Virus record (IMG/VR): IMGVR_UViG_3300044691_000566
Location: 95,747 to 159,746 of that record
DNA: 64,000 bases
DNA from: a virus
Strand: one strand, 5' to 3'
The notes under the pieces were generated by a model that searched no databases, was not told where the DNA came from, and worked only from the letters and a program-made list of their open reading frames with translations. Made by a program: the position numbers and the translations under genes. Shown here one piece after another: positions 1 to 53,532 of this stretch (position 1 is the first letter of the stretch; each line of letters starts with the position of its first letter).

Positions 1-2118
1 ATCCACCACTGGGACCTGGCCTCCCCCGAGGAGAAGGCACAGGGCAAGCGCTGGTACCCCGACGCGCACCTGGTGGCTCGATCCATTGCCCGACTGGACA
101 CCCGCATCAAGACCGACAAGGAGGCCGCCCACAAGGGCGGCGGGGTCCTGAGCGCGTACAGCCCGCAGCAGAACTGGTGGGCCAACCAGCACAACGCGGC
201 GCGGTCCTTCCACGAGCAGCGGGCCCTGGGCAAGGGCGAAGGCATCATGATCATGGCCAGCCACGCCAAGGCGGCCCAGCGGATCATGGACGGCGAAGAC
301 AGCCAGAAGGTGCTGAAGGGGCCGAAGACCTCCGACTTCGCATCCCTGATCGAGCACGGCGGCAACGACGAGCACGGCAACCCCTCGCAGAAAGTCGTCG
401 TCGACCGGCACGCCCTTTCGGTGGCCGCCGGACGCCGCCTGAAGGCCGACGACGTCAACGGCTTCCCCTCCCAGAGTCGGCACTACTACGAGCACGCCGC
501 CGAGCACTACCGCCGCGCGGCAGCCGTCATCTCCGACCGGGAGGGACGCACCGTGCCCCCGCACGAGGTCCAGGCCACCACGTGGCTGGTGCGCCAGCGC
601 CTCAACGCCGAACAGGACAGCTCCCCCGGCCAGAAGGGGCGCGACTCCCTCCAGCGCAAGCACAAGGACGAGTGGCAGGGCCTGACCCATGAGCACGCCC
701 CGGAACTGCACGAGCCGCCCACGAACTCTCATGTGGCCGGGGCCAACGGGGACCTTCCGGAGGGTCTGCACTTCACTTACCACGGTGGACCGGACTACAA
801 GTACCACGTACTGCGCGCCCACACTCCTGATTACAAGCAGGCCGGGAAGTTGGAATGGACGAAGAAGCGTGAAGAGTACTGGGACGAGAAGGGGCCCGCC
901 GACTTCCAGCCCGACAAGCAGTGCGACCACTGCAACATGAACGGTCACGGCGATTCCTGGCACGTCAAGCCCGCCGGTCACATCAATTGGATCGGCGTGG
1001 TCCCTGAATATCAGCGTCGGGGGGTGGCTTCGGCCATGCTGGATCACGCTGCGGCCAATTACGACCCGGCTCCGGTGCACACTGCGCACACCACCGACAG
1101 CGGCAAGGGCCTCCAGCAGAGCCGAAGTGCCGTCCTGCCGAACGACTCCCAGCGCCTGCTGGGCCGCAAGCTGGCCTACGGCGAGCAGCGGGCCCCCGAA
1201 GACGTCGACACCCTGCGTGAGGACGCCTGCCCGGTGTGCGGCGACCGTGACGCCTTCAACGGCGCCACATGCCAGGTGTGCGGCTACGTCGCGCCCCCGA
1301 AAATGTTCCAGGACCCGGACTTGGAGAAGGCCCGGCAGATGGACCTGCGGAAGGACATCGCAGAGTTCAACGATCCGGCCAGCCCCGACCAGCTCGGACC
1401 CGACGGCCAGCCCGTCGCCAACCCGATGGACCCGGCAGCCCTGGACGAGAACGGCAACCCGGTCAACCCCGACGCTGCGGACCAGCAGGCGCAGCCCGGC
1501 ACGCTCCCCGGTGAGGTACAGGCCGAGGTGCAGCCGGGCGGTGACCCGATGGGCGGAGGATCGCCCATGGACCCCGACGCGCTCGGGCAGGACGGCCAGA
1601 TCCCCGAGGAAATGGGTGCGCCGGTCGATCCGGCCATGCTCGGGCCCGACGGCCAGCCGCTGCAACAGCCCGGCCAGCAGCAGATGGTCGGACCGGACGG
1701 GATGCCCATCGGTCCGCAGGCGCTGCCGCCTGACGCGACCACCAGTGAAGGCCAGCCGTTCACCCCGGGGCCCGACATGCCCCAGGGACCGGGCCAACCG
1801 GCAGGACCCCAAGGCCCGGCCGGGCCCGAGGACCTGGACCAGGACGGACAGATCCCCAACCCGGACGCGGGCCAGGGAGTCCCCGGAACCCCCGGGGACG
1901 GTGTACCGGATCTCCAGTGCCCGGCGTGCGGCTTCACCGTGGACGCCACCGCGCCGGTCTCGGTGGACATGGACACCTCGATCATGCCGCCGAGCGGACA
2001 GGCCACCCCCGACGGCGTCCAGGCGGGCGACGTCTGCCCCAACTGCGGTACCGCACAGCTCATCAGCCCCGCCGAGGGGCAGGGCGAAGTACCGCCTCCG
2101 ATGCCCGCACAGATATGA
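1..2118 (+). CDS. 5'-truncated multidomain head-region protein: HhH/glycosylase-like domain, GNAT acetyltransferase, zinc ribbons, P/G/Q-rich linker
   Basis: Frame open from base 1; motifs VVVDRHA...PHEVQATTW, GNAT motif A (VVPEYQRRGVASAML), CPVC/CQVC and CPAC/CPNC; lies upstream of scaffold and capsid genes. Confidence 0.6.
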   Translation: MHHWDLASPEEKAQGKRWYPDAHLVARSIARLDTRIKTDKEAAHKGGGVLSAYSPQQNWWANQHNAARSFHEQRALGKGEGIMIMASHAKAAQRIMDGEDSQKVLKGPKTSDFASLIEHGGNDEHGNPSQKVVVDRHALSVAAGRRLKADDVNGFPSQSRHYYEHAAEHYRRAAAVISDREGRTVPPHEVQATTWLVRQRLNAEQDSSPGQKGRDSLQRKHKDEWQGLTHEHAPELHEPPTNSHVAGANGDLPEGLHFTYHGGPDYKYHVLRAHTPDYKQAGKLEWTKKREEYWDEKGPADFQPDKQCDHCNMNGHGDSWHVKPAGHINWIGVVPEYQRRGVASAMLDHAAANYDPAPVHTAHTTDSGKGLQQSRSAVLPNDSQRLLGRKLAYGEQRAPEDVDTLREDACPVCGDRDAFNGATCQVCGYVAPPKMFQDPDLEKARQMDLRKDIAEFNDPASPDQLGPDGQPVANPMDPAALDENGNPVNPDAADQQAQPGTLPGEVQAEVQPGGDPMGGGSPMDPDALGQDGQIPEEMGAPVDPAMLGPDGQPLQQPGQQQMVGPDGMPIGPQALPPDATTSEGQPFTPGPDMPQGPGQPAGPQGPAGPEDLDQDGQIPNPDAGQGVPGTPGDGVPDLQCPACGFTVDATAPVSVDMDTSIMPPSGQATPDGVQAGDVCPNCGTAQLISPAEGQGEVPPPMPAQI

Positions 2119-2126
2119 GGAGAGGC

Positions 2127-2360
2127 ATGCCCAGGCCGATCGACGCAGAGCTGAACAGCTCACCGTTCCGCATCAACTTCGAGGTCACCCTCGCCGACGG
2201 CACCAGCGTGGCGTCCCGGGGCTTCATCCCGGAGGAGAGCTGGAACGCCCTGAACGACGAGCAGCGTCTCGCCGAGGTGAGGGCCGGTCTGGAGGCCACC
2301 ACGGCGGCCATCTTCGCTCTGGTCGAGAAGCACGGCTTCCCGGACGTGACCGTCGGATGA
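2127..2360 (+). CDS. hypothetical protein (77 aa)
   Basis: RBS GAGGAGAGG before ATG 2127; high-GC3 codon usage. Confidence 0.65.
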   Translation: MPRPIDAELNSSPFRINFEVTLADGTSVASRGFIPEESWNALNDEQRLAEVRAGLEATTAAIFALVEKHGFPDVTVG

Positions 2361-2575
2361 GCGGCGACATGGCGACCACGGCCGTGATTACGGTCGAAGG
2401 CATCGAGTACTACCCGTGGGACGTCTGCGGTGCCCCCGACGGCTGCGTGATGGGCCGCGAGCGGGGCTACGTCAAGAACGGCGTGATTCACGTGCGGGCG
2501 GACATTCAGCCGCCCGCCGAAGGCTGGGGCGAGCACATCTGTTCGGGCACCTGCTCTCGTCCTGTCCTGGTGTGA
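2357..2575 (+). CDS. small Cys-containing hypothetical protein
   Basis: ATGA overlap with the previous stop; typical codon usage. Confidence 0.55.
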   Translation: MSGDMATTAVITVEGIEYYPWDVCGAPDGCVMGRERGYVKNGVIHVRADIQPPAEGWGEHICSGTCSRPVLV

Positions 2576-2596
2576 CCCAGGCCCCGTAAGGGGTGA
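2563..2596 (+). promoter_or_regulatory. bipartite late-promoter motif TGTC-N20-(G/T/A)AAGRGGTGA
   Basis: One of 9 copies with exactly 20-nt spacing, all upstream of virion genes. Confidence 0.7.
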
Positions 2597-2646
2597 AGAC
2601 CACCGCCCACGGCCTCCGTGAGCCCGCATCCGAGGAAGTACATCTC

Positions 2647-3567
2647 ATGGCATCTGGTAACCGCCCGCTCATGCAGGCCATGGCGTCCCAGCAGAAGACG
2701 CTGGAGGCCACCCGCCAGCACATGGCCAGGGTCACTGCCCGCAACGCCGAACTGGAGCGTCAGTTCGCCATCCAGGGCCTCCAGCTCGCGTACGTGGCGC
2801 GGCTGGCGGGGGTGACGAAGGAGGTCGAGGCGATCAAGCGCCAGGCCGACATCGACAACCCGGCGCAGCCCGTGCCCAACCCGCCCTCGGAGGCCCCGGT
2901 GGAGACCACCGAGCAGGCCGCCACCCCGGAGGCGTACGACAACCCCAACCAGATCGGGCAGACCCCCGGAGCCAACCAGGGCGTCGCGGCCGAGACCACC
3001 GCCACGCCGATGGACCCGGGCGTGACCCTGCCGACCGCGCCGTACAACCAGCTCCTCAACGTCTCCGCCCCGGTGGCCGGAACCGAGACCCACACCCCGC
3101 CGGACACCACGCGCATCGAGACCGACGTCCGCGTGGGCGACCCGATGAACCCGGAGACGGCCTACCCGCTCAACCCGGCGTTCGGGCCGTCCGCGCAGCA
3201 GGGCACCACCCCGCCGCGTGACGGGGAGATGAGCCAGACCGGTTCCCGCAACCGGACCCTGGCCTCCATGCGCCTGGCCCGTCACCGGATCACCGCCGGT
3301 CTGGTCCGGGGTGACGAGTTCGCGGTGGCCGCCTCCATCGAGGGCGACCAGAACCTGAGCGACGCGATGATCCGCCACGAGATCGCCACCCTGTCGCAGG
3401 TGACCAAGGCCGCCGCGCGGCAGGCCCGGCCGCAGGGCCTGGTGCCGCGCTCGGCTTCCGGTGTGCAGCGCACCACGCCGTCCCTGGTGACGCAGCCCGC
3501 CCCCATCACGTCGGTGGCGGGGTCCGTGGGCGCCTACGACGAGGACGCCGAGAGCCTTTTCGACTAG
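2647..3567 (+). CDS. putative capsid scaffolding protein
   Basis: N-terminal coiled coil and P/T-rich low-complexity body; directly upstream of decoration and major capsid genes; RBS GAGGAAG. Confidence 0.55.
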   Translation: MASGNRPLMQAMASQQKTLEATRQHMARVTARNAELERQFAIQGLQLAYVARLAGVTKEVEAIKRQADIDNPAQPVPNPPSEAPVETTEQAATPEAYDNPNQIGQTPGANQGVAAETTATPMDPGVTLPTAPYNQLLNVSAPVAGTETHTPPDTTRIETDVRVGDPMNPETAYPLNPAFGPSAQQGTTPPRDGEMSQTGSRNRTLASMRLARHRITAGLVRGDEFAVAASIEGDQNLSDAMIRHEIATLSQVTKAAARQARPQGLVPRSASGVQRTTPSLVTQPAPITSVAGSVGAYDEDAESLFD

Positions 3568-3583
3568 GGTCTCTCCTCGGATC

Positions 3584-3617
3584 GCAGCCCCCTCACAGCG
3601 CTATGGGAGGGGGCTGC
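3584..3617 (+). terminator. hairpin after the scaffold gene
   Basis: GCAGCCCCCTC...GAGGGGGCTGC followed by ATGTTTT. Confidence 0.5.
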
Positions 3618-3641
3618 GGCATGTTTTCAGGCCCTTGATCC

Positions 3642-3675
3642 TGTCTTCCCCGGCCCGAGCCCTCGAAAGGGGTGA
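3642..3675 (+). promoter_or_regulatory. late-promoter motif TGTC-N20-AAAGGGGTGA
   Basis: Motif copy upstream of the capsid operon. Confidence 0.7.
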
Positions 3676-3747
3676 GAAGGGCCTGTCTCGTATCGGACAT
3701 CGAGCAGACGGCCCATATGTCCGAATAGACGAGATGGGAGGGAAAGC

Positions 3748-4272
3748 ATGCTCCGTACCCGTATGGCGACTTCGTACATCAAGCGTACGATTCGACCGCT
3801 TTATGGTTGGACGCAGGCGACGCCCGCTTCCTGCTTCCTGGACGCAGCTTGGGACCGTTCCGTCCCGATCTGGCCTGGAATGGTGTTCATGAAGACCGCC
3901 GGGGAGAACGTGTCCCTGATAGGCGCGACCAGCAGCATCCCCTACGGCCTGGGCGCCCTGTACGTCGGCGGCGACGGCATCGACGAGCCGCTGGACTCGG
4001 GCATCAACACCTTCTCGGTGTGGAAGCTCGCCCCCGACGCCGAGTTCGAGATCCTCGCCCCCGCCTTCGACACCACTCAGGCGTGGGTCGAGCCGGGCGA
4101 CGGCACCGAACAGCTCATCTACGGTGCCGCCACCGGCACCGGTCGTGGCAAGCTCGCGCTCGCCACCAACGGGTCGGTCGTGACTGCGCTCACCGTGCAG
4201 CCGGTCGCCCGCCTCCTGAAGGTCAACTCCGCGACGAAGATCACCATCGGTGGACTTCGTCAGAAGTACTAG
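3748..4272 (+). CDS. capsid decoration / minor capsid protein
   Basis: 174 aa immediately upstream of the major capsid gene, the position of the decoration protein in Bxz1-like phages. Confidence 0.6.
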   Translation: MLRTRMATSYIKRTIRPLYGWTQATPASCFLDAAWDRSVPIWPGMVFMKTAGENVSLIGATSSIPYGLGALYVGGDGIDEPLDSGINTFSVWKLAPDAEFEILAPAFDTTQAWVEPGDGTEQLIYGAATGTGRGKLALATNGSVVTALTVQPVARLLKVNSATKITIGGLRQKY

Positions 4273-4285
4273 GAGCTGACTGACG

Positions 4286-5275
4286 ATGACGACTCAGACT
4301 CTCGCCGCCACCTCGTCCCTGCGCGGCCGTATCGCGCGCAAGTCCGACGACTACGCCAACGCCATCATGGAGCGCCGCAAGAGCAACGCGCCGCTCACCC
4401 ATGAGGCCAAGGTCAAGAAGATGGCGTTGATCCTCTCCGACGAGACCAGCGGCATCCGCCGCCTGGGCGTCGGGATGGTCGGCCCCATCCAGCTCAAGCT
4501 GCGCTACCAGGGCATCACCAGGAACGTGCTGGTGGAGGACCCGGTTACCCCGGGTACCCCCGTCGAGTACGACGTCTGGGATGATCTTGGTCAGGCGTAC
4601 ATCATGTCCGGCACCGAGGGCGAAGTCCGTGTGACTCCGTTCGAGGGCAAGCGCGTTCCGGTGCGGTTCTTCCGTATCGCCTCGCGCCCGGCCATCCGCA
4701 AGGAGGACCTGTTCTACCTGCGTATCAACGCAGTTGAGCAGGCCCAGGACGAGACCAAGCAGGCCATCCTCAAGCAGGAGGACACCCGCCTGCTCGTCCT
4801 GCTCCAGGCGGCGCTGACCGACTACGCCACCCGGCCGGACCACACGGTCACCCCGAACCACAACATCACCGAGGCGTCGGGCTACCTGACGCCGGGCTCG
4901 CTGTACTCGGCCGTCGCCATGACGGACATGCACGAGTTGCAGAGTGCCAGGATCTTGATCAACCCGTTCGACTTCCGGGACCTCTACCGCTGGGACATCA
5001 ACCAGACCGGCTGGGCGTTCAAGGACCGGGTCGTCGCGGGCGAGACGATCACCTCGTTCGGCGAGTTCCAGATCCAGCGGTCGATCATCGTGCCGCAGGG
5101 CAAGGTCTTCCTCACCCCGGAGCCCAACTTCTTGGGCGTTTTCCCCGTTTTGTACTCCTTGGACGTCGAGGAGAACCACATGGTGGAGGCGTTCTGGAAG
5201 GGCTGGGTGTTCGACGAGATGGTGAACATGACCATTTTGAACGCAAGGGGAATTGCCACGATTACCAAGGCTTAG
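4286..5275 (+). CDS. major capsid protein (Bxz1/cluster C-like)
   Basis: GPIQLKLRYQGITRNVLVED, DDLGQAY, GEVRVTPFEGKR and FRIAS closely resemble the cluster C mycobacteriophage MCP as recalled. Confidence 0.9.
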   Translation: MTTQTLAATSSLRGRIARKSDDYANAIMERRKSNAPLTHEAKVKKMALILSDETSGIRRLGVGMVGPIQLKLRYQGITRNVLVEDPVTPGTPVEYDVWDDLGQAYIMSGTEGEVRVTPFEGKRVPVRFFRIASRPAIRKEDLFYLRINAVEQAQDETKQAILKQEDTRLLVLLQAALTDYATRPDHTVTPNHNITEASGYLTPGSLYSAVAMTDMHELQSARILINPFDFRDLYRWDINQTGWAFKDRVVAGETITSFGEFQIQRSIIVPQGKVFLTPEPNFLGVFPVLYSLDVEENHMVEAFWKGWVFDEMVNMTILNARGIATITKA

Positions 5276-5866: not shown

Positions 5867-5970
5867 GGCCCCCGGATTTAAAAATCCGGGGGCCGTTCCC
5901 CTGCCCAGCCATGCCACGCCCAGCCAAACCCCACCGTGCCGGGCCATACCATGAGGCCCTGACTCTATCA
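5867..5970 (-). ncRNA. GGY/NN repeat RNA unit A5 (candidate guide)
   Basis: TGATAGAGTCA leader; NN = AT AT CC AC GG TT TG GT AT TG AG; hairpin GGCCCCCGGATTTTTAAATCCGGGGGCC. Confidence 0.75.
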
Positions 5971-5982
5971 TCTCCAACGACT

Positions 5983-6078
5983 GAGGGGCTCCCCGTAGGA
6001 AGCCCCTCCCATGCCTTGCCACGCCGAACCGGGCCCTGCCTTGCCCTGCCAGGGCATGCCAGGGCCTTGACCCTGTCA
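5983..6078 (-). ncRNA. GGY/NN repeat RNA unit A4
   Basis: TTGACA-N17-CAGGGT; NN = CT AT CT AG AA AG CC TC GT AA AT (one GCC triplet); cUACGg hairpin. Confidence 0.75.
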
Positions 6079-6104
6079 TCTCCAATGGCACCTGTCAAAC
6101 GACT

Positions 6105-6207
6105 GAGGGCGCCACCCCGAAGGATGACGCCCTCCCATGCCCCGCCTGGCCCTGCCAGACCTCGCCACGCCGAGCCTCGCCCAGCCCCGCAAGACCTGAC
6201 TCTGTCA
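6105..6207 (-). ncRNA. GGY/NN repeat RNA unit A3
   Basis: TTGACA-N17-CAGAGT; NN = GG TG GA TC GT GA CT AG CA GG AT; cUUCGg hairpin. Confidence 0.75.
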
Positions 6208-6231
6208 TCCCTGCCCGCATCTGTCAAAGCT

Positions 6232-6324
6232 GAGGGCGATCACCCGTAGATGATCGCCCTCCCATGCCCTGCCCGGCCAAGCCGAGCCGCGCCATGCCTA
6301 GCCCTGCAAGACCTGACTCTATCA
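6232..6324 (-). ncRNA. GGY/NN repeat RNA unit A2
   Basis: TGATAGAGTCA; NN = AG TA AT GC TC TT CG AG AT; cUACGg hairpin. Confidence 0.75.
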
Positions 6325-6335
6325 GCCCCAATGAC

Positions 6336-6436
6336 GAAGGGGCCCGAAGGACCCCTTCTCCCTGCCCTGCCCGGCCTAGCCCCACCGCGCCAGACCTTGC
6401 CCAGCCGTGCCTAGCCACGCGGCCCTGACTCTATCA
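6336..6436 (-). ncRNA. GGY/NN repeat RNA unit A1
   Basis: TGATAGAGTCA, whose TGA is the upstream ORF's stop; NN = GT TA AC TG AA CT GC GG TA CG AG AG; cUUCGg hairpin. Confidence 0.75.
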
Positions 6437-10072: not shown

Positions 10073-10942
10073 ATGGCGCTCTTCTGGAACGACCGGCAGT
10101 ACGTCTCCCAGTACGCGGTGGACGTGGTGGGCATCCACCTGCTCCGCAACCAGGTCCCGGTGGACGCCGACTCCGGCGTCGCCCTCACCATGGTCTCGGA
10201 GAACACCGGCAGCGAGGTCTTCTCCCGCGCCGCCACCCACAACGCGACCGGCGACTACTCGGCGTCGTTCAACAGCGTGGAGACCTCTGTCCCCGGGTCC
10301 TACACGCTGGCGTGGACCTACGTCCTGACCGGGCAGCCGGAGTACCTGGAGTCCGGCATCGAGGTCGGCCCGGCTGCCCCCTCGTACGACAATCTCGCGC
10401 CGGGGATGAAGGACATCGTGGAGGGGGTCATGATCCGCATCGCGGACACCATCGACTCCCCGGGCGGTGGCCCGAATTTGTTGACATATGTCCAGAGCAA
10501 GTTCGGCCGGGGCCGGATCGCCGAGCTGATGCGGATCGCCCTGGGCCGCCTCAACACGGTCGCCCAGCCCCATCAGACCTACACCCTGGACGGCAATGGG
10601 GGCGCCACCTTCCCCTTCGCCCAGTGGGGTCCGCTGCTGGAGGCCGTGACCTGGGCGGAGACGCTCAAGCATCTGATCCGCAGCTACAACGAGCAGCCGA
10701 ACTTCATCGGCTCCGGCAACATCTCCCGCCTGGACCGCCGGGACTACGTCCAGCGCTGGCGCGACTCCCTCATGGACGAGGAGGCCGCGATCAAGGGGCA
10801 GCTCGATGTCTTCAAGATCGCGTCCATGGGCCTGGGCCGACCGGCTGTGCTGATTTTCGGGGGCGTCTATGGTCGGTACGGGCCCACTCGCATGTCGGGT
10901 AGCGTGGCCGCGCGGCCCCGTTACTGGACGAGATTCTACTAA
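10073..10942 (+). CDS. putative head-to-tail adaptor
   Basis: Position, and motifs LKHLIRSYNEQP and LDRRDY.QRW reminiscent of cluster C adaptors. Confidence 0.55.
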   Translation: MALFWNDRQYVSQYAVDVVGIHLLRNQVPVDADSGVALTMVSENTGSEVFSRAATHNATGDYSASFNSVETSVPGSYTLAWTYVLTGQPEYLESGIEVGPAAPSYDNLAPGMKDIVEGVMIRIADTIDSPGGGPNLLTYVQSKFGRGRIAELMRIALGRLNTVAQPHQTYTLDGNGGATFPFAQWGPLLEAVTWAETLKHLIRSYNEQPNFIGSGNISRLDRRDYVQRWRDSLMDEEAAIKGQLDVFKIASMGLGRPAVLIFGGVYGRYGPTRMSGSVAARPRYWTRFY

Positions 10943-10960
10943 AACCGGACATTACGGCCA

Positions 10961-11065
10961 TGATAGGGTCAGGTCCTGCAAGGCACGGCAGGGCTAGGCG
11001 AGGTCTGGCAGGGTACGGCTGGGCACGGCAGGGGGAGGGCGATCACCTACGGGTGGTCGCCCTCC
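10961..11065 (+). ncRNA. GGY/NN repeat RNA unit B1
   Basis: TGATAGGGTCA; NN = AA AC AG TA GA CT AG AC TG AC AG; cUACGg hairpin. Confidence 0.75.
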
Positions 11066-11089
11066 GTTGTTGACAGATCCAGTAGGACA

Positions 11090-11185
11090 TGACAGAGTCA
11101 AGTCGTCCTCATTCACCTGGGGCGGGCGTCGGTCGATCCGTGGTGCTCCCTTTCGCAACAAGGGCACGGATTGACCGACGTCTTT
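11090..11185 (+). ncRNA. non-repeat hairpin small RNA inside array B
   Basis: TTGACA-N17-CAGAGT leader, then an 18-bp stem GGCGTCGGTCGATCCGTG/CACGGATTGACCGACGTC with two G.U pairs and a TTT tail. Confidence 0.55.
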
Positions 11186-11204
11186 GTACTCCCGTCGGTA
11201 ACCC

Positions 11205-11288
11205 TGATAGAGTCAAGTCCTCGGCACGGCTAGGTAGGGCAGGGTTTGGTAGGGCAGGGAGAAGGGGTCCTCTACGGAGGACCCCTTC
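11205..11288 (+). ncRNA. GGY/NN repeat RNA unit B3
   Basis: TGATAGAGTCA; NN = TC AC TA AG AG TT AG AG; cUACGg hairpin followed by GTTTT. Confidence 0.75.
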
Positions 11289-11344
11289 GTTTTGCCCCCG
11301 CAGGCCCGGTAGAGTCCGGCCTCCACCGTCAGAGAGGACCCTCA

Positions 11345-11554
11345 ATGCCCGACAGCGAGATCATCAGGGACTGGTACACCTCCAGCGCCTGCGGGGCGAA
11401 CAACTCCTGCCTGGAGGCCCGCACTTACGCCGACGGGTCGGTCGAGATCCGCAACTCCCAGGACCCGAAGGGCACCCTCCTCCGGTTCACCGAGGACGAA
11501 TGGTCCGCCTTCCTCGTGGGCGCCCGCGCCGGGGAGTTTTCCACCGGGGCATGA
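11345..11554 (+). CDS. DUF397-family protein
   Basis: WYTSSACGANNSCLEA...VEIRNSQDP...LRFTEDEWSAFL matches the actinobacterial DUF397 consensus. Confidence 0.85.
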   Translation: MPDSEIIRDWYTSSACGANNSCLEARTYADGSVEIRNSQDPKGTLLRFTEDEWSAFLVGARAGEFSTGA

Positions 11555-11556
11555 CC

Positions 11557-11640
11557 TGATAGAGTCAAGTCCTCGGCTAGGCATGGCGGGGCTCGGCTTG
11601 GCACGGCAGGGAGAAGGGGTCCACTACGGTGGACCCCTTC
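11557..11640 (+). ncRNA. GGY/NN repeat RNA unit B4
   Basis: TGATAGAGTCA; NN = TC TA AT GG TC TT AC AG; cUACGg hairpin. Confidence 0.75.
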
Positions 11641-11656
11641 GTCGTTGGGAGGACGG

Positions 11657-11836
11657 ATGCGCATCGGTCAGGAGCCGCCCCGGCGGGAGAAGCTGCGGGG
11701 CTACGTGATCACCGGCTGCATCAAGTGCGGCGGCCGGTCCAAGTGGATCCGGCGTGGACCGCACGACTGCTGCTTGCGCAAGGACATGAGCCGGGCCCGG
11801 GAGAAGCAGGAATGGCGCCGGACCCTCAGGGATTGA
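11657..11836 (+). CDS. small basic Cys-rich protein (59 aa)
   Basis: RBS GGAGG; CIKC...HDCC; its stop is the TGA of the next leader. Confidence 0.6.
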   Translation: MRIGQEPPRREKLRGYVITGCIKCGGRSKWIRRGPHDCCLRKDMSRAREKQEWRRTLRD

Positions 11837-11932
11837 TAGAGTCAAGTCCCTGGCAAGGCTGGCCAAGGCCCGGTAGGGCACGGCTTGGCCCGGCAGGGCA
11901 GGGAGAAGAGCCCCACTACGGTGGGGCTCTTC
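11834..11932 (+). ncRNA. GGY/NN repeat RNA unit B5
   Basis: TGATAGAGTCA; NN = CT AA TG AA CC AG AC TT CC AG AG (one GCC triplet); cUACGg hairpin. Confidence 0.75.
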
Positions 11933-11956
11933 GTCGTTGACGGACCCCGCAGTTCA

Positions 11957-12070
11957 TGACAGAGTCAAGTCCTGCATGGCCGGGCGGGACGTGGCGCGGT
12001 GTGGCATGGCTAGGTAGGGCCGGGCAGGGCATGGGCTGTGGAGATGGGGCCTCTTTCGGGAGGCCCCATC
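11957..12070 (+). ncRNA. GGY/NN repeat RNA unit B6
   Basis: TTGACG-N17-CAGAGT; NN = AT CG GG GT GC GT AT TA AG CG AG AT (one GAC triplet); UUCG hairpin. Confidence 0.75.
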
Positions 12071-12074
12071 GTCT

Positions 12075-12172
12075 TGATAGAGTCAAGTCCCTGGCTGGGC
12101 TTGGTATGGCTGGGCTTGGCGTGGTGAGGCATGGCAGGGGGAGAGGGCCCGGATTTTTAAATCCGGGCCCTC
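12075..12172 (+). ncRNA. GGY/NN repeat RNA unit B7
   Basis: TGATAGAGTCA; NN = CT TG TT AT TG TT GT GA AT AG; hairpin GAGGGCCCGGATTTTTAAATCCGGGCCCTC. Confidence 0.75.
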
Positions 12173-12182
12173 CGCCATATGG

Positions 12183-12212
12183 TTGACACTCCAGGAATCC
12201 TTGGAGTACAGT
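12183..12212 (+). promoter_or_regulatory. sigma70/HrdB-type promoter with a palindromic operator in the spacer
   Basis: TTGACA-N18-TACAGT; spacer holds ACTCCAGGAATCCTTGGAGT. Confidence 0.7.
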
Positions 12213-12250
12213 CACCTTCGCCAGAGAACGCCGAGCCCCAGGGAGGGCCC

Positions 12251-12829
12251 ATGCAGGTCCGTTTGACTCTTACCGGAACCACATCGCTGCTCATGCACAA
12301 CGCGCGGCTGTCCGACCCGTTGGACCCCTACACCAAGATGCTCAAGGCCATCTCCTCCAAGCGCACCAAGACGGAGGACGACCACGACGACATGGCGCGC
12401 GTCGAATTCCTCGGCGGCCTGTACTTCGACCCGGAGGCCGGGCCGTACGTTCCCGGCGTCAACGTCCACCGCTGCCTGGTGGAGGGCGCCAAGCTCAACA
12501 AGCTGGGCCGCCACGTGGAGCGCGGCATCATCGCCCTGGACGAGATCTGCCCGCTGGGCTACGCGGGGCCGCGCACGGAGGAGGCGCTGTGGAAGGACAA
12601 AAACTTCGTCTCCCGGCTGTCCGTCGGCGTCACCACCTCGCGCGTCATGCGCACGCGCCCCGAATTCCCGGTGTGGGGCCTGGAGGCCGACATGCTGGTG
12701 GACACCGGCCAGCTCGACCTGGAGCAGGTCCGCACCATCGCCGAGAAGTCCGGACAGATGATCGGTCTCGGCGACTACCGTCCCCGGTTCGGGCGATTCA
12801 CCGTCGAGGTCGTCGAACTCCAGGGCTGA
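12251..12829 (+). CDS. stand-alone RAMP / Cas7-like RNA-binding protein (Vipr-like effector candidate)
   Basis: 192 aa; N-terminal strand VRLTLTGTTSLLMH, PYVPGVNVHRCL, RTRPEF..W and C-terminal G-rich loop IGLGDYRPRFGRFTV are RAMP hallmarks; adjacent to the GGY/NN array; RBS GGGAGG. Confidence 0.8.
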   Translation: MQVRLTLTGTTSLLMHNARLSDPLDPYTKMLKAISSKRTKTEDDHDDMARVEFLGGLYFDPEAGPYVPGVNVHRCLVEGAKLNKLGRHVERGIIALDEICPLGYAGPRTEEALWKDKNFVSRLSVGVTTSRVMRTRPEFPVWGLEADMLVDTGQLDLEQVRTIAEKSGQMIGLGDYRPRFGRFTVEVVELQG

Positions 12830-12868: not shown

Positions 12869-13432
12869 ATGGCCGCCAAGCCGTTCGAGCCCAAGGGCGA
12901 TGTCGCCCGCTGGGTCCCCGTCTACGAGAATCTGCGCGACCTGGAGCCGGGGGTGCTGGTCACGTACGAGCAGCTCTCGGAGTGGGCCGGAGTCGATGTC
13001 CGGCGCGACCGCAGCCCCCTCGTGCAGGCCGAGGACAAGCTCCTGAAGGAGCACGGGCGCGGCGTCGCCAACGAGCGGGGCGTGGGGTACCGGATCATGC
13101 TGGCCTCCGAACACGGTGAGGCCGCCCGGCGCCAGACCCGGAAGGCCGACCGCCGGATCAGGAAGGCCATAACCCTTCTGACCGTGGCCGACCGCAATCA
13201 CCTGACCCCGCAGCAGCGGCAGAAGTACGAGAGTCAGGCCGGGGCTCTCCAGGCCGTCCGGGACATGACCAACCGCCTGGCGCGGCGGACGGCCGCGCTG
13301 GAGGAGGGTCTGAAAGCGGTCCGTCGGGAGACCAAGGAGACCACGGCCGGTCTGTCCGACCGCTTGGAGCGGCTGGAGGCCCGGTTCGCGAACGTTCCGG
13401 GCGATGCCCCGGCGGACAGCACCACGACCTGA
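12869..13432 (+). CDS. winged-helix plus coiled-coil protein, co-transcribed with the RAMP gene
   Basis: VTYEQLSEWAG...NERGVGYRI wHTH-like N-terminus and long helical C-terminus; RBS GAAGGAGG. Confidence 0.7.
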   Translation: MAAKPFEPKGDVARWVPVYENLRDLEPGVLVTYEQLSEWAGVDVRRDRSPLVQAEDKLLKEHGRGVANERGVGYRIMLASEHGEAARRQTRKADRRIRKAITLLTVADRNHLTPQQRQKYESQAGALQAVRDMTNRLARRTAALEEGLKAVRRETKETTAGLSDRLERLEARFANVPGDAPADSTTT

Positions 13433-15338: not shown

Positions 15339-15424
15339 TGATAGAGTCAGGGCCTCGGTATGGCTGGGCCGGGCTCGGCTGGTCGGGGCATGGCAGGGGA
15401 GGCCCCCACTTCGGTGGGGGCCTC
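15339..15424 (+). ncRNA. dispersed GGY/NN repeat RNA unit C
   Basis: TGATAGAGTCA; NN = TC AT TG CG TC TG GG AT AG (one GTC triplet); cUUCGg hairpin. Confidence 0.7.
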
Positions 15425-15429
15425 AGCCG

Positions 15430-15463
15430 TGTCCGGGGTCCGGCGAGCCCGGTGAAGGGGTGA
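15430..15463 (+). promoter_or_regulatory. late-promoter motif TGTC-N20-GAAGGGGTGA
   Basis: Motif copy. Confidence 0.7.
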
Positions 15464-43983: not shown

Positions 43984-44295
43984 GTGACACTCGACATGAT
44001 GGCGGCGCAGATCGTGATGCGCGCCCGCCAGATCGAGCGCGCCCTGCACGATCCCGGACCCTGGACCATCAGGAACCACGGCCACACCTACCCGGCGCGC
44101 AAGGTCATCGGTGACGACCACGTGACCTTCTATGCCGTCGTGGACATTCACCACCCGGTCCTGGAGCTGTGCGCCGGAGAGCGGTCGATCCAGAACGGGG
44201 GACTGGTGGCCTTCAAGACCGTGGAGAACGTGGAGGGCCCGACCCAGGTCTCCTGGGAGTTCCTGGTGGCCAATTTCGAGCAGGTTGCCGCATGA
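43984..44295 (+). CDS. hypothetical protein
   Basis: RBS GGAGGAG before GTG 43984. Confidence 0.6.
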   Translation: MTLDMMAAQIVMRARQIERALHDPGPWTIRNHGHTYPARKVIGDDHVTFYAVVDIHHPVLELCAGERSIQNGGLVAFKTVENVEGPTQVSWEFLVANFEQVAA

Positions 44296-46880
44296 CGGCT
44301 ACGGCGACCGAGGCCCCCTCCGGCCAGTCGCCGGAGGGGGCTCTCTACTTTTCGCCTCGCGGTCTGTACCCGTTCCAGGCCGACCACATAGCGCGGATCT
44401 ACCTGGGCATCCAGTCCGGCATACCGGAGTGGATGATCGTCTGGGACACCGGGCTGGGGAAGGCGGAGCCCATATCCGAGCCCGTGCTGACTCCGGTTGG
44501 CTGGGTTCCCATGGGCGACTTGCGAGTGGGACATCAGGTCATCGCGGCGAACGGCCGACCGGCGAAGATCCTTGCTGTGCACCCGCAGGAGTCCCGCGAG
44601 GTGTACCGAGTGGCCTTCTCCGACGGCTCCTGGACCAGGTGCAGTCCCGAACACCTGTGGACGGTCTCCTACTGGGGACCTGACCGATCCTCGGGCAAGC
44701 AGGTTCGGGTCCGGCGGAGCAAGACCGTCACCTTGCGCCAGCTCATGGCTGAGGGGGTCACCACTCCGAAGGGGCGTCGGAAGTTCTCCATCCCCATGAC
44801 CGCCCCGGTGCAGTACCCGGAGCGCAATCTGCCCATGGACCCGTATGCCCTCGGGGTCGTCCTCGGCGACGGCAATGTGAACCCTCGCGGATATGTCTCG
44901 CTGACCACCGACAAGGAGATCATCGACGCCTTGGCCGTCCCGGGGTCCCGGTACGAACACCGTTCTGCTGGCGTGGCGGTCCTGAACACCAACGCGTGGA
45001 GAGAGGTCCTGACGGGCCTCGGACTGGCCGGACGCCGGGCCTGGGAGAAGTCCGTCCCAGAGATCTACCTGCGAGCCCCAGAGGACAGCCGCAGGGCCCT
45101 CCTGGCCGGTTTGCTGGACACGGACGGGTCGCCGATCGAAGAGGGCGGAGTCGAGTTCTCCACGACCTCAGAGGCCCTGCTGGACGCGGTGATCGAGCTG
45201 ACCGAGTCGCTCGGCGGACAGGCCCGCAGCAAATCGTCTCGGTTCACGACCTACACGCACAACGAGGAGACGAAGCGGGGGCGCAAGTCCTGGCGGGTAA
45301 ACGTCAAGCTCAACGAGCAGCCGTTCCGTCTGGCGCGCAAGATGATCCGCTGGACCGAGCCGACTAAGTACCCGGTCCAGCGAATCATCGAGTCCATCGA
45401 GCGCGTGGAGGATGAGGATTCGGTCTGCATCACCATCGACCGCTCAGACGGCCTCTACCTCACCCGCAGCCACATCGTCACGCACAACAGCCATGCCGCC
45501 ATGCGGCTGACCACCCTCGGCTTCGAGGACGACGCGGTGGACTTCGTGCTGCTGGTGTGCGAGCGGGGGAAGCTCAAGGAGTGGCAGGCGGACTTCGAGG
45601 AGTTCACCACGCTCGACACCCGGATCCATCACGGGCCGTCCCGGAACGGGAAGCTGGCCAAGCTCGGGCTACCTCAGGTCTTGATCACCACCTTCGAGAC
45701 CGGCAAGGCCGATCTGGTGGTGATGGAGAAGACCGGCCGCAAGCGGCGCACGTTCGAGACCGGTCCGCTGCTCACGCGGATACTCGAACACTCCAGACGT
45801 CCCATGATCATCTTCGACGAGGCCGACCGGCTGAGCAACCGGTCGGCCGCAAACTATCGGGCGTATGAACACGTCCTCAGGACCTTCCGTAAGGTTTTTA
45901 AAATCCCCGTCCTCATGCTGACCGGGACTCCGATCCGGCGGGACTGGGAGGGCTCATTCAACCAGCTCCGCCTGCTCCGACCTGCATCAATGCCTCTCGT
46001 AGGGGAGTTCGAAAAGTACTTCGTACGGGGGAGGGACGACTACGGCCGGGCCCGGTACCACGACTACCGCATGCCGGAGTTCGCCAACCTCTGCTCGCCC
46101 ATGCTGCTGGCCAAGTCCAAGACCGACCCCGACGTCATCGCCCAGTTCCCCGTGTCGACCGAGGAGGCGTTCTGGGTGGACCTGGAGGGGGAGCAGAGGA
46201 AGTTCTACGATTTTGTCGCGGAGCTGGACGCCCCGGGTCAGATGGCGGCTCTCCGGCAGATCTGCGCCCACCCGGCGGCCCTCCTCCACTCGGCCACCGA
46301 GGGCAAGTCCAAGCTGGCCAGGGCCCTCGTGGACGAGTTCGGCGAGGACTACATACGCTCGCTGCCCTCGGCGAAAACCGACGCCCTGGTCCGCTACGTG
46401 GAGCCGATCGTCAAAGGTCAGGACGCCAAGGTTCTGGTCTTCACCTTCTTCGGCCCCTCGGTGATACCGCACCTGCGCGCGGCACTGACCGCCCGGCACG
46501 TCCCGGTCTTCACCCACGACGACGAAGACGGCATCGAGAATTTTAAGAAGCACCCGGGGGGTGGCGTCCTGCTCGCCTCCGACGCGGTGGCCCGGGGGAT
46601 CAACCTGCCCGAGGCCAGCTACCTGATCGAGTACGACGTGGCTTCGACGTTCGGCCTGCGGACCCAGCGGCTGAACCGGGCCTCCAGGATCGGCAAGGGC
46701 GGCCCCACACTCACCATCCGGACCATGCTGGCGCGGGAGAGCCTTGAGATCGCGCTGCTGCACAACATGCTGGAGGGCAACGCCCAGGCCGACGCCCTGC
46801 TCGGTCACGGTGTGGACGGCTCGGAGTTCATGACGGCCGCCATGCGGCGGAAGATCCTCACCGAGGGCATGGGGGAATGA
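44292..46880 (+). CDS. SNF2-like SF2 helicase interrupted by an intein
   Basis: LYPFQ, DTGLGK|S (split by the intein), FDEAD, LTGTP, ARGINL, QRLNRASRIG. Confidence 0.85.
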   Translation: MTATATEAPSGQSPEGALYFSPRGLYPFQADHIARIYLGIQSGIPEWMIVWDTGLGKAEPISEPVLTPVGWVPMGDLRVGHQVIAANGRPAKILAVHPQESREVYRVAFSDGSWTRCSPEHLWTVSYWGPDRSSGKQVRVRRSKTVTLRQLMAEGVTTPKGRRKFSIPMTAPVQYPERNLPMDPYALGVVLGDGNVNPRGYVSLTTDKEIIDALAVPGSRYEHRSAGVAVLNTNAWREVLTGLGLAGRRAWEKSVPEIYLRAPEDSRRALLAGLLDTDGSPIEEGGVEFSTTSEALLDAVIELTESLGGQARSKSSRFTTYTHNEETKRGRKSWRVNVKLNEQPFRLARKMIRWTEPTKYPVQRIIESIERVEDEDSVCITIDRSDGLYLTRSHIVTHNSHAAMRLTTLGFEDDAVDFVLLVCERGKLKEWQADFEEFTTLDTRIHHGPSRNGKLAKLGLPQVLITTFETGKADLVVMEKTGRKRRTFETGPLLTRILEHSRRPMIIFDEADRLSNRSAANYRAYEHVLRTFRKVFKIPVLMLTGTPIRRDWEGSFNQLRLLRPASMPLVGEFEKYFVRGRDDYGRARYHDYRMPEFANLCSPMLLAKSKTDPDVIAQFPVSTEEAFWVDLEGEQRKFYDFVAELDAPGQMAALRQICAHPAALLHSATEGKSKLARALVDEFGEDYIRSLPSAKTDALVRYVEPIVKGQDAKVLVFTFFGPSVIPHLRAALTARHVPVFTHDDEDGIENFKKHPGGGVLLASDAVARGINLPEASYLIEYDVASTFGLRTQRLNRASRIGKGGPTLTIRTMLARESLEIALLHNMLEGNAQADALLGHGVDGSEFMTAAMRRKILTEGMGE
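44463..45488 (+). mobile_element. class 3-type intein with a LAGLIDADG homing endonuclease (342 aa)
   Basis: Starts AEPISEPVLTP, ends IVTHN|S; EHLW (block B Trp), SVCITID (block F Cys), LLAGLLDTDG. Confidence 0.85.
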
Positions 46881-46881
46881 C

Positions 46882-46968
46882 GAAGAGGTCCTCCGTAGAG
46901 GACCTCTTCTCCCTGCCGTGCCTGGCCTCGCCTCGCCTAGCCATGCCCCGCAAGACCTGACTCTATCA
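46882..46968 (-). ncRNA. dispersed GGY/NN repeat RNA unit D
   Basis: TGATAGAGTCA; NN = GG AT TA GA GA CA AC AG; cUACGg hairpin. Confidence 0.7.
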
Positions 46969-46983
46969 GCCCCAGGAGACCCC

Positions 46984-47268
46984 GTGGTGGACCTCGGTCC
47001 TCTCGACGATCCGGCCTACCAACCCGTTCACGCGCCGCAGGACGGCCGTGTGCCGCCCGTGGTGGCCCGCTGGGGGAAGAACTCCCAGCTCCGCTGGTTC
47101 AGGCGCTTCGGGGCCAAGCTGAAGCTCCGGGAGAACGAGGTCTCCGGGTTCTGGGTCTGGTCCGAGCACCATCGGGGGTCTCACTGCGGAGCGTGCCTCA
47201 ACGAGGAGTACGAGGGCACCGGAGTGATCATGGACGGCTGGTGCTGCTGCCGGGACAGCCGAATGTGA
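46984..47268 (+). CDS. small Cys/His-rich hypothetical protein
   Basis: RBS AGGAG; HHRGSHCGAC...WCCCR. Confidence 0.6.
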   Translation: MVDLGPLDDPAYQPVHAPQDGRVPPVVARWGKNSQLRWFRRFGAKLKLRENEVSGFWVWSEHHRGSHCGACLNEEYEGTGVIMDGWCCCRDSRM

Positions 47269-47269
47269 T

Positions 47270-47900
47270 CGACTTGCTACTACGGCATTCGTTGGAGTAG
47301 CGTCTTCCACGTCAGCCCGAGCCGCACTTGGACGCAGCTCGGTAGGGCGATGCACAGCATGACGGCGGCCAGGGGTCTGAGGAAGTCCCCGGCCGCCCAG
47401 AAGCTCCCATGAGATCAGTCCGACTAGGTAGTTCCGCTGATGGGAAGGCGGGGCGTAACGAATCCGGACCCCTGCGGGGAAGCACGGTCTCATGGGCTCC
47501 CAGGCGCTAAAGCTGAGGTCCAGCCCACCTTGCGCCGAAACGGGTAGGTCGGGACACCTCTATGAGGTGTACAGCTCCTGGTCAGCCCCACCAGGGACCG
47601 CAACGGGGCACCTATACGCACGCGGGGCCAGTCGTGATCGAGCCGGTGAATCGACTGGTCCCGCGTGTCCTCGACCGGTATGGCCTCGTTAGGCCATCCG
47701 CGCGACGGGTCAGCCCCACCCGTGGTCGGAAACGGGGCACCCTGGATCCGCGTCGGTCTCCGTTCCGGCGTGACCGGGTAGATCCGGTTTCATCCCTACC
47801 GGATCAGAAACGGTGAGCCGCGTCCTCTTGCCAGCCCGGAAACAAGGACGTAGGGGAGAGCGCACCAGTTCTAGGATCCCCTTCCGTGCAGGCGGAGGGG
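47270..47900 (+). ncRNA. large structured non-coding RNA candidate
   Basis: No ORF with phage codon bias; many stems with G.U pairs and GNRA-like loops; duplicated hairpin/pseudoknot module; boundaries approximate. Confidence 0.6.
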
Positions 47901-47952
47901 GATGGTGCGGGGCAACGACCGTACAGCCCGAACGGCCCCGGATCGGGCACAA

Positions 47953-47991
47953 AGAAGGGCCTGGACAACTCGTGGAGTCCGGGCCCTTCTT
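47953..47991. terminator. hairpin between convergent units
   Basis: AGAAGGGCCTGGAC...GTCCGGGCCCTTCT. Confidence 0.55.
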
Positions 47992-48019
47992 CATGCCCGG
48001 GAACGAGAGGTCCAACAAC

Positions 48020-48121
48020 GAAGGGGACCACCCGGAGGTGGTCCCCTTCTCCCTGCCAAGCCAAGCCCCGCCACGCCATACCCTGCCGCGCCTCGCCATG
48101 CCTCAAGACCTGACTCTATCA
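48020..48121 (-). ncRNA. dispersed GGY/NN repeat RNA unit E
   Basis: TGATAGAGTCA; NN = GA AT GA GC AG AT GT GG TT TT AG; cUCCGg hairpin. Confidence 0.7.
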
Positions 48122-48128
48122 GCCCCCA

Positions 48129-48344
48129 TTACACGGGCGGGTGCGAGTGCAGATGGTTCGTACGCTTCCTGCCGCCGCAGGAGTCCCGGTTCTGGCAGAA
48201 GGCCCCGACACCCCGGCAGTGGTAACAGGTGCTCTCGCCGGGGAGTTCGCTCGTCGGCAGCATCCCCACGTAGTGCTTGCCCTCCGCGACGCGCCCCTGG
48301 CCGAAGCACCCCTGGCAGTGCAGATGGGGTCCGGGACACAGCAT
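48129..48344 (-). CDS. small DnaJ-type CxxCxGxG zinc-finger protein
   Basis: CQGCFGQG and CYHCRGVG. Confidence 0.6.
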   Translation of the reverse strand: MLCPGPHLHCQGCFGQGRVAEGKHYVGMLPTSELPGESTCYHCRGVGAFCQNRDSCGGRKRTNHLHSHPPV

Positions 48345-48514
48345 CAGCGGCTACCGCCCCGGACCTGTCCGGTGCCCTTGCAGGTGTCGCAGCGCTCGGA
48401 CTGGACGATGGTCTTGCCGTCTGTGTTCTGCCGCTCGACCATGTTGAAGCCCCGGCCCTCGCAGGATCCGCAGTCCTGGAAGACCTCGGATTTCTTGCCG
48501 CGTCTGAATCCCAT
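48344..48514 (-). CDS. small DnaJ-type CxxCxGxG zinc-finger protein (56 aa, absent from the ORF track)
   Basis: MGFRRGKKSEVFQDCGSCEGRG...RCDTCKGTGQV; RBS GAGGGGG; TGATG overlap with the next gene. Confidence 0.65.
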   Translation of the reverse strand: MGFRRGKKSEVFQDCGSCEGRGFNMVERQNTDGKTIVQSERCDTCKGTGQVRGGSR

Positions 48515-48537
48515 GTGTGCCCCCTCGGGCCTCGTCC

Positions 48538-48555
48538 GTGGACCTGACTCTATCA
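48538..48555 (-). promoter_or_regulatory. leader/promoter TGATAGAGTCAGGTCC without a GGY tract, upstream of the zinc-finger genes
   Basis: Same leader as the repeat units, followed directly by an RBS and ATG. Confidence 0.6.
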
Positions 48556-48585
48556 GGGCGTGTTGGTCGCGTCACGCAGAATGAC

Positions 48586-48686
48586 GAAGGGGCACCCCCG
48601 TAGAGGTGCCCCTTCTCCCTGCCGTGCCAAGCCCTACCCTGCCCTGCCATGCCAGGCCGAGCCATGCCAAGGACTTGACTCTATCA
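48586..48686 (-). ncRNA. dispersed GGY/NN repeat RNA unit G
   Basis: TGATAGAGTCA, whose TGA is the antirepressor stop; NN = TT AT TC CT AT AG AG AG TT AC AG; cUACGg hairpin. Confidence 0.7.
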
Positions 48687-53145: not shown

Positions 53146-53426
53146 CCCGGCCGGTGCTGTACTTCGTGCTCGCGTGCTCCCGGCACCAGTCCATGGACTG
53201 GTGCCGGGAGCACGACGTTCGCCCTCACCGGCCCGGGGTCTCCATCGATAATCGCGAGGAACCGGTGGCGCTCCACGTCACAGACATCCAGCGGCTCCGG
53301 GGCCTCCAGGGGTCCGGCCCCATTGAGGTCGTCACGACGGGGAACTGGTATCACCTCCGGGCTTCCGGAGAACTGCTGGAGGTCGCCGAGCGCATTGCCC
53401 AGGTCGCCAACGAGGACAGGTCCTGA
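53142..53426 (+). CDS. hypothetical protein
   Basis: GTGA overlap with the dinG stop; its stop is the TGA of the next leader. Confidence 0.55.
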   Translation: MTRPVLYFVLACSRHQSMDWCREHDVRPHRPGVSIDNREEPVALHVTDIQRLRGLQGSGPIEVVTTGNWYHLRASGELLEVAERIAQVANEDRS

Positions 53427-53532
53427 TAGAGTCAGGACTACATGGTGCGGCTTGGCCTGGTGAGGCGTGGCTAGGCAGGGCAAGGCATGGGTATGGACAG
53501 TGGCTCTCCTCCGGATGGGGGAGAGCCACTGT
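53424..53532 (+). ncRNA. dispersed GGY/NN repeat RNA unit H
   Basis: TGATAGAGTCA; NN = AT GC TT CT GA GT TA AG AA AT; hairpin ACAGTGGCTCTCC...GGAGAGCCACTGT. Confidence 0.7.

Follow-up and report, generated by a model that had tools for sequence, protein, structure and literature searches.

A VIPR guide RNA gene of a soil virus matches helicase motif III of actinobacterial TtrA-like and Type ISP genes

We analyzed the final 64 kb (the window) of a viral record that spans 159,746 bp and has 67% GC and terminal repeats; matching DNA is present in soil metagenome runs, among them probably that of the source sample. Judged by its sequence, a short unit at positions 11957-12070 of the window, here called B6, is a guide RNA gene of a VIPR system, a type of system that has already been published. 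The ttrA-like helicase genes of Streptomyces are, in our assessment, the likely natural targets of this guide, with Type ISP restriction-modification genes as a secondary or alternative target, and the phage probably uses B6 to silence helicase genes of one or both of these kinds.

VIPR was first described in three preprints in 2026 (bioRxiv 10.64898/2026.04.26.720920,.720927, 10.64898/2026.10.15.759431). Its parts are a minimal RAMP protein (Vipr), an accessory protein (Vap), and vrRNAs, which consist of 9-16 YNNGG repeats followed by a structured tail; the NN pairs recognize double-stranded DNA, with one base skipped per pair, mostly at the codon wobble position (10.64898/2026.04.26.720920,.720927). 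The evidence for this 1-nt skip rule comes from pangenome searches, assays of binding and of reporter repression, reprogramming, and cryo-EM (10.64898/2026.04.26.720920,.720927). Natural targets were called at an NN match of at least 80%, a cut-off that is a bioinformatic convention rather than a measured in vivo mismatch tolerance, and no guide matched its own genome at that level (VIPR preprints). Most of the mapping of natural targets has been done in E. coli and Pseudomonas, where they comprise satellites, prophages, competing phages, and other VIPRs; the natural targets of Escherichia phage SUSP1 match its guides at ~89% on average (VIPR preprints).

Results

The B6 unit and its relatives in the genome

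The repeat tract of B6 (~11976-12035, + strand), which forms the guide, contains 12 YNNGG units and reads AT-GGC-CG-GGC-GG-GAC-GT-GGC-GC-GGT-GT-GGC-AT-GGC-TA-GGT-AG-GGC-CG-GGC-AG-GGC-AT-GGG, with one degenerate scaffold in which GAC takes the place of GGY. Both direct re-reading and a register script returned the same string of dinucleotides as a preliminary description of the unit, AT CG GG GT GC GT AT TA AG CG AG AT. The tract is preceded by a promoter-like region (11937-11965, +), composed of TTGACG (11937-11942), a 17-nt spacer, and TGACAGAGT (11957-11965), an extended -10-like motif that the units have in common as TGAYAGAGT. The core of this upstream motif, AGAGTCAAGTC, is enriched, with 12 copies in the window where 0.62 would be expected, and is found before every unit; we take the TGAYAGAGT-type motif to be the putative promoter of B6, although a simple sigma-70 promoter scan did not call the promoters of the units. 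On the other side, the 3′ tail (12036-12074, +) forms a hairpin rich in GC, GGGGCCTC...GAGGCCCC, capped by a UUCG-type loop, which may serve as a terminator or as the tail of the RNA. The stretch 11968-12074 is predicted to fold with -60.5 kcal/mol (z = -3.9), including a 12-bp terminal hairpin. A terminator scan found no T-run at the B6 tail and did not call the hairpins of the units.

Searches of reference collections returned little for this region. Rfam at gathering thresholds gave no family in the window, which also contained no tRNAs and no CRISPR-like repeats, and among GenBank phages, blastn found nothing that matched 10900-12250. An exact search of IMG/VR with the 16-nt promoter motif gave 6 matches, all of them chance occurrences in unrelated low-GC contigs without repeats.

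B6 is one of 20 units of a single build in the 159,746-bp genome, each with a TGAYAGAGT motif, 8-15 pentamers, and a hairpin; 16 of them lie within the window. Across all 20, the NN positions are variable and the scaffold is conserved. Six units form an array directly upstream of vipr (10962-12175, +), with repeat tracts besides that of B6 at 10967-11041, 11223-11262, 11575-11614, 11852-11906 (B5), and 12093-12142 (B7). A second array of five units lies at 5896-6435 (-), and the others in the window are a solo unit at 15340-15440 (+), three dispersed units at 46908-48685 (-; tracts 46908-46957, 48048-48102, and 48614-48668), and a second solo unit, H, at 53425-53532 (+). Beyond this genome, a pattern of seven full GGCNN units and a further GG was found in at least 120 viral contigs of IMG/VR with 39-72% GC, often as several arrays per contig, so repeat arrays of the VIPR type appear to be very widespread in uncultivated viruses.

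Some further features were observed around the units. Two small ORFs lie between units of the six-unit array, at 11346-11552 (69 aa) and 11657-11833 (59 aa), both on the + strand; the second encodes CxxC...C motifs, and Pfam gave no usable match for either. Between two of the dispersed units, ~650 nt of noncoding DNA (47300-47950, -) contain repeated ggtggggctgac-type motifs, with no long high-GC3 ORF and no Rfam match. A second class of promoters consists of TTGAC(A/G), a spacer with the palindrome CCAAGGATTCCTGG, and TA(C/G)(A/T)(G/C)T. It is present at 12183-12212 of the window and at positions 29109, 42503, 45337, 49014, and 50378 of the genome (minus strand), and at these five upstream sites, it is followed by the remainder of the unit motif on the opposite strand. 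This class looks like a family of operator-containing promoters, one copy of which would drive vipr.

Vipr and a candidate Vap

The copy at 12183-12212 (+) was called by the promoter scan as a sigma-70-like promoter, with TTGACA and TACAGT separated by an 18-nt palindromic spacer. It precedes vipr (12251-12829, +), which encodes a 192-aa minimal RAMP protein of the Cas7/Csm3 kind with the G-loop GLGDYRPRFG. Pfam holds no family for this protein, for which 515 homologs were found. Its AF2 model (pLDDT 92.6) was matched by Foldseek to Csm3/Cas7 RAMP proteins in every top match, with E values of 1.5e-5 to 1e-3. Sequence identity is 39% to proteins of E. coli Ounavirinae phages (E 5e-40), 42-44% to Pseudomonas phage proteins, and up to 56% to proteins of Gordonia and Mycobacterium phages. 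In the Vipr of SUSP1, residues D177, W178, R179, H17, and R138 hold two guanines and a pyrimidine (VIPR preprints, bioRxiv 10.64898/2026.04.26.720920,.720927). Compared without direct alignment, D175-Y176-R177 (in the G-loop), H16, and R136 of the present protein have nearly equal residue numbers.

A candidate vap gene (12869-13432, +) starts 40 nt past vipr and encodes 187 aa, modeled as an N-terminal winged-helix-like domain followed by a long coiled coil. Its 19 homologs are apparently encoded on contigs that also carry Vipr homologs, and the vipr-vap pair recurs in relatives. The AF2 model has a pLDDT of 82, and Foldseek gave weak matches to winged-helix DNA-binding domains (E of at least 0.009); Pfam gave no usable match.

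Taken together, the locus contains a minimal RAMP protein outside any CRISPR-cas locus, as judged by fold, G-loop, and homology. It has tandem YNNGG vrRNA genes with a structured 3′ tail, in the form of a simple hairpin, and places vipr beside the vrRNA arrays and ahead of an accessory gene, the winged-helix assignment of which is weak. The 1-nt-skip matches of at least 80% described below, with the skip at codon position 3 and no self match at that level, are likewise as in the published systems.

Search for the targets of B6

Read as its reverse complement with one base skipped after each pair, B6 decodes to L-R-L-Y-M-T-A-T-P-R-I, helicase motif III of the TtrA and Type ISP branch of SF2, with the skipped bases on the wobble positions. 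The preliminary description had arrived at the same decoding, [IM] L R L [Y/*] [IM] T A T P R [IM], the arithmetic of which is correct, and the antisense, wobble-skipping code on which it relied is the 1-nt skip rule established by experiment for VIPR (10.64898/2026.04.26.720920,.720927).

A seed of NN1-9 (18 fixed bases) was found in 38 contigs of IMG/VR, spanning 37-72% GC, and in all 38 the site lay in frame at (K/R)RLYMTATPRI; a seed of NN4-12 gave no matches in the same collection. Of the 38 encoded proteins, four were searched against Pfam; three proved to be Type ISP enzymes, and the fourth a helicase with HA domains. The preliminary description had given RLYMTATPR as the motif III context of Type ISP helicases and Streptomyces TtrA-like helicases, an assignment with which all 38 seed hits and the domains of the proteins checked agree.

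When species-representative genomes were searched with an 11-NN pattern (22 bases), 15 matches were found against ~0.07 expected (596 Gb, uniform composition). A search of this kind had been proposed as a pointer to the host, and all 15 exact matches came from Actinobacteria: 11 from Streptomyces, three from Mycobacterium, and one from an actinomycete MAG. Each of these loci reads LRLYMTATPRI, and 12 of the 15 score 23/24 guide bases. The full 12-NN pattern was absent from species-representative genomes, IMG/VR, and metagenome contigs, the best match anywhere being 23/24, and the NN2-12 pattern was absent from metagenome contigs. The two 3′-most NN (AG and AT) rarely match together.

Several controls place these matches far beyond chance, so that helicase genes do not match merely as random loci would, the outcome that could have overturned the preliminary reading. 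With up to 3 mismatches allowed, B6 matched 134 of 401 Streptomyces genomes, and its reversed pattern none of the 401. In each of 30 TtrA homologs picked by protein similarity alone (34-100% identity to the query), B6 matched best at motif III, scoring 18-23/24 (at least 20/24 in 25 of the 30) against no more than 17/24 for shuffled guides. In Type ISP restriction enzymes, the motif matched B6 at 83-96%. The neighboring guide B7, searched in the same manner with up to 2 mismatches, had no match in 301 Streptomyces genomes, and none of the other 19 guides scored above shuffled guides on ttrA-bearing contigs, apart from one borderline score of 16/20.

In agreement with the preliminary description, the phage itself does not appear to be a target. 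The best self score of B6 is 17/26, and the corresponding motif of the phage's own SNF2-type helicase differs, reading VLMLTGTPIR (aa 585 of the ORF at 44169-46880, +). For all 20 guides, the best self matches under the 1-nt skip reach 59-78%, and none reaches 80%. Within the helicase encoded by the ORF at 44169-46880, aa 308-357 form a LAGLIDADG-like domain, perhaps an intein or a homing-endonuclease insertion. The targets, the GC content, and the soil source together point to a Streptomyces-type actinobacterium as the presumed host of the phage.

Genomic context of the matching genes

Five of the Streptomyces target proteins were checked, encoded by ORFs of ~800-1,200 aa. They contain ResIII, DEAD, and Helicase_C domains and four HA domains, and are therefore TtrA-like. 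The domain set of Type ISP enzymes (Mrr nuclease, ResIII helicase, ISP coupler, N6 methylase, and Type_ISP_C) was found in three IMG/VR proteins, and a Mycobacterium locus showed the same domains except for the N-terminal nuclease, which lies outside the fetched stretch. TtrA-like homologs were found in 85 of the 121 Streptomyces genomes searched, making these genes the more frequent matching target in Streptomyces, and in 440 Streptomyces plasmid records, several of them within a few kb of the end of the record. Among sequenced phages, no close TtrA/ISP-type helicase was found; the best tblastn matches had 23-28% identity over part of the protein.

The B6 matches in Streptomyces are often paired, for example in five genomes in which each end of a single-contig chromosome has a match at a distance of 1.7-22 kb, and ttrA is known to be subtelomeric on linear Streptomyces replicons (bioRxiv 10.1101/2024.11.13.623437). 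Furthermore, the ttrA-like gene has TniB- or TniQ-like neighbors at each of the 11 Streptomyces loci with an 11-NN match. On one 16-kb contig with a 23/24 site, the gene of a TniB-like ATPase (14-1057, +) is followed by the ttrA-like gene (1152-3830, -) and by a TniQ gene (3506-4804, +). In the clade 1B Tn7-like telomeric transposons, tniQ likewise adjoins ttrA on the opposite strand, and the gene of a TnsC/TniB-type ATPase lies close by (bioRxiv 10.1101/2024.11.13.623437); the likeness of the best targets to clade 1B rests on their TniB and TniQ neighbors and on gene order, with several loci on short contigs. Given these flanks, the best targets appear to sit in a mobile element, in line with the conflicts between mobile elements that have been published for VIPR. 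A competing mobile element thus fits the target of B6 at least as well as host defense, the role that the preliminary description had put forward. In the telomeric type I-E CAST systems of Streptomyces, ttrA accounts for 5.9% of the non-redundant spacers (bioRxiv 10.1101/2024.11.13.623437), which suggests that guide-directed systems on linear replicons address ttrA repeatedly.

Guides in related phages

In two related phages, L237 and L238, the Vipr proteins of which are 67-68% identical to the one described here, the unit beside vipr keeps the 9-NN core of B6, as AT CG GG GT GC GT AT TA AG in one and AT TG GG GT GC GT AT TA AG in the other; a third relative, L239, keeps a 7-NN core. The relatives retain the part that encodes LYMTATP(R)I and not the 3′ NN. 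As the NN are kept in these two B6 orthologs while leader, tail, and several Y positions of the scaffold differ, we argue that selection acts on the LYMTATP(R)I footprint. Parts of the neighboring guides also recur: B5 shares AA TG AA CC AG A(C/T) TT CC with a unit of L237 (3810-3894), and B7 shares TG TT AT TG TT GT with a unit of L239 (5737-5786).

Unit H gives a view of self and non-self. It decodes to nine consecutive residues of LLLYTSRKAM, a motif of the phage's own DinG (site in dinG at 52534-52563), a number that no shuffled guide attained in 60 trials. At the DNA level, the match to the phage's own dinG is 15/20, since serine is encoded by AGC rather than TCN and arginine by CGC rather than AGR, among other mismatches. 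In a related 153-kb phage (L241:301-2316), the corresponding codons are TCC and AGG, and the site scores 18/20. The exact 10-NN pattern of unit H had no match in IMG/VR, and a search for related loci with DinG as the query yielded no confirmed relative. The matches of unit H to the two dinG genes suggest that such guides may be aimed at the orthologs of relatives, the phage itself being spared by switches between the codon families of six-fold degenerate amino acids.

Discussion

By analogy with the published systems, we infer that B6 is transcribed, assembled with Vipr, and bound to DNA so as to silence its target to the benefit of the phage. The promoter-like motif of B6 would probably drive synthesis of a ~100-nt RNA, with 12 GGY/NN pentamers and a stable terminal hairpin. 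Each pentamer would be bound by one copy of Vipr (12251-12829), with the GGY buried and the NN presented, as in the solved SUSP1 complex. The resulting filament of Vipr and vrRNA would pair with double-stranded DNA, skipping every third base, and thereby block transcription. Its predicted site is the coding strand at L-R-L-Y-M-T-A-T-P-R-I, to which B6 is complementary, in ttrA-like genes that are subtelomeric on linear chromosomes and plasmids, the closest of which have TniB or TniQ neighbors. What the phage would gain is a matter of conjecture: a telomeric transposon or a linear plasmid might be blocked, or a restriction enzyme pre-empted.

Because the motif is so widely conserved, the sequence match does not distinguish whether ttrA, a Type ISP gene, or a competitor yet to be sampled is the selected target, and the case for ttrA as the target of a VIPR guide has to be weighed against the others. 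Repression of a conjugation helicase brings no obvious benefit to a phage, a 12/12 target is absent from the collections searched, one scaffold of B6 reads GAC, and the remaining 19 guides show no convergence on ttrA contigs. B6 could instead be an anti-defense guide against Type ISP restriction-modification genes (Mrr-type nuclease, helicase, and methylase), with the ttrA matches as a by-product of the common motor domain, a reading to which we give a minor but real share of the probability. The three IMG/VR proteins with the full Type ISP domain set, of ~1,650-1,800 aa, speak for it, as do two Mycobacterium matches and one from the actinomycete MAG that lie in a Type ISP-like context (one of them domain-checked) and all score 23/24. 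Streptomyces ORFs with similarity to the TtrA helicase domain, assigned as Type ISP-sized by their length of ~1,600 aa, score 21/24, and the TtrA motor itself matches the PADLOC Type IIG/ISP model with an E of ~1e-68. However, the exact 11-NN matches in Streptomyces are all ttrA-like, and silencing of transcription cannot remove an enzyme that is already present when the phage DNA enters.

It is less probable still that the true target is the helicase of a competing phage, prophage, or satellite that has yet to be sampled and matches at 12/12, the database matches being its relatives. Published VIPR targets are mostly of this type, the missing 12/12 site would be accounted for, and unit H of the same phage appears to be aimed at the dinG of a related phage. 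Yet the lack of a close TtrA/ISP-type helicase in sequenced phages argues against such a target, as does the retention in the related phages of the LYMTATP(R)I core without the 3′ NN, and a perfect match need not be expected, as the natural targets of SUSP1 also average ~89% rather than 100%. A coincidental or functionless match, in a G-rich structural RNA, protein sponge, or decoy with NN that carry no information, we consider very improbable. A 5-nt G-rich period could suit a ring-shaped RNA-binding protein or a two-tier G-quadruplex, but chance does not explain 134 of 401 genomes against none for the control with every match in frame at one motif, nor the NN that relatives keep while scaffold Y and tail vary, nor the RAMP gene that adjoins the array, and experiments on homologous systems have demonstrated the identical code. 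The notion of the decoding as numerology and of the RNA as a protein sponge or G-quadruplex was dropped on the basis of the VIPR preprints and the target searches, and is strongly disfavored. A VIPR guide that addresses ttrA-like genes, with Type ISP genes beside them, is the reading that we carry forward.

The locus adds to the known systems a VIPR with 20 guides in a large soil actinophage. The target of one of these guides can be named with controls, and also predicts the genus of the host. The target belongs to a class that had not been reported for VIPR before, a conserved motor motif that the Type ISP enzymes have in common with the TtrA helicases found at the telomeres of linear replicons and in telomeric transposons. 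As only codon positions 1 and 2 of motif III are read, one RNA would address most ttrA and Type ISP genes of Streptomyces. Herein lies the strength of the code, in that a single guide covers a protein family across 37-72% GC, and the six-fold degenerate codons are its loophole. As a corollary of unit H, self and non-self would be distinguished only by switches between such codon families (TCN/AGY, CGN/AGR), leading to an arms race in synonymous codon space. We tentatively raise the possibility that a hard-wired guide of a lytic actinophage is aimed at a protein motif rather than at a particular element, and that VIPR extends to host defense genes or to telomere-associated mobile elements. If true, a speculative benefit would be that the phage shields its own linear DNA ends from telomere-seeking transposons.

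Comparison with known systems

TRAP-type rings bind GAG/UAG triplets with 2-3-nt spacers, at a 5-nt period and with one subunit per repeat. The likeness to the present units is formal only, lying in a 5-nt periodic, G-containing RNA; the present locus lacks a TRAP homolog, and its variable dinucleotides encode sequence information. The Cas7/Csm3 filaments of CRISPR Class 1 are closer, sharing the RAMP fold, one protomer per RNA repeat, and a thumb that breaks the duplex periodically. In contrast to these systems, the present locus has no CRISPR repeats, spacer acquisition, or other cas genes, and its guides are hard-wired genes; its RNA repeats every 5 nt and pairs through 2 bases of each repeat, where the CRISPR filaments have a 6-nt period and pair through 5. 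The telomeric type I-E CASTs are likewise RNA-guided, with guides enriched for ttrA. Whereas their contiguous spacers direct transposition to telomeres, the phage guide reads only positions 1 and 2 of the codons in a single motif, presumably to repress.

The closest counterparts are the Type II VIPRs of SUSP1 and of a Pseudomonas fulva prophage. They share with the present system a homologous minimal RAMP protein of ~190 aa with a like G-loop, thumb, and His contact residues, and a small gene for a DNA-binding-type partner directly 3′ of vipr. Also shared are GGY/NN vrRNAs with a structured tail, present both in arrays beside vipr and as solo copies, and the 1-nt skip on the wobble position without a self target of at least 80%. 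The differences lie in the setting and in the guides. Here, the system resides in a 160-kb soil phage with 67% GC and terminal repeats, with a presumed actinobacterial host, and its 20 units are spread over eight sites, each with its own TGAYAGAGT motif and hairpin. The tails vary between units with no evident pseudoknot, whereas the tail of SUSP1 forms one. Unlike the satellite-focused guide sets of SUSP1, the guides of this phage do not converge on a single element, and the target of B6 is a helicase motif encoded in chromosomal, plasmid, or transposon genes.
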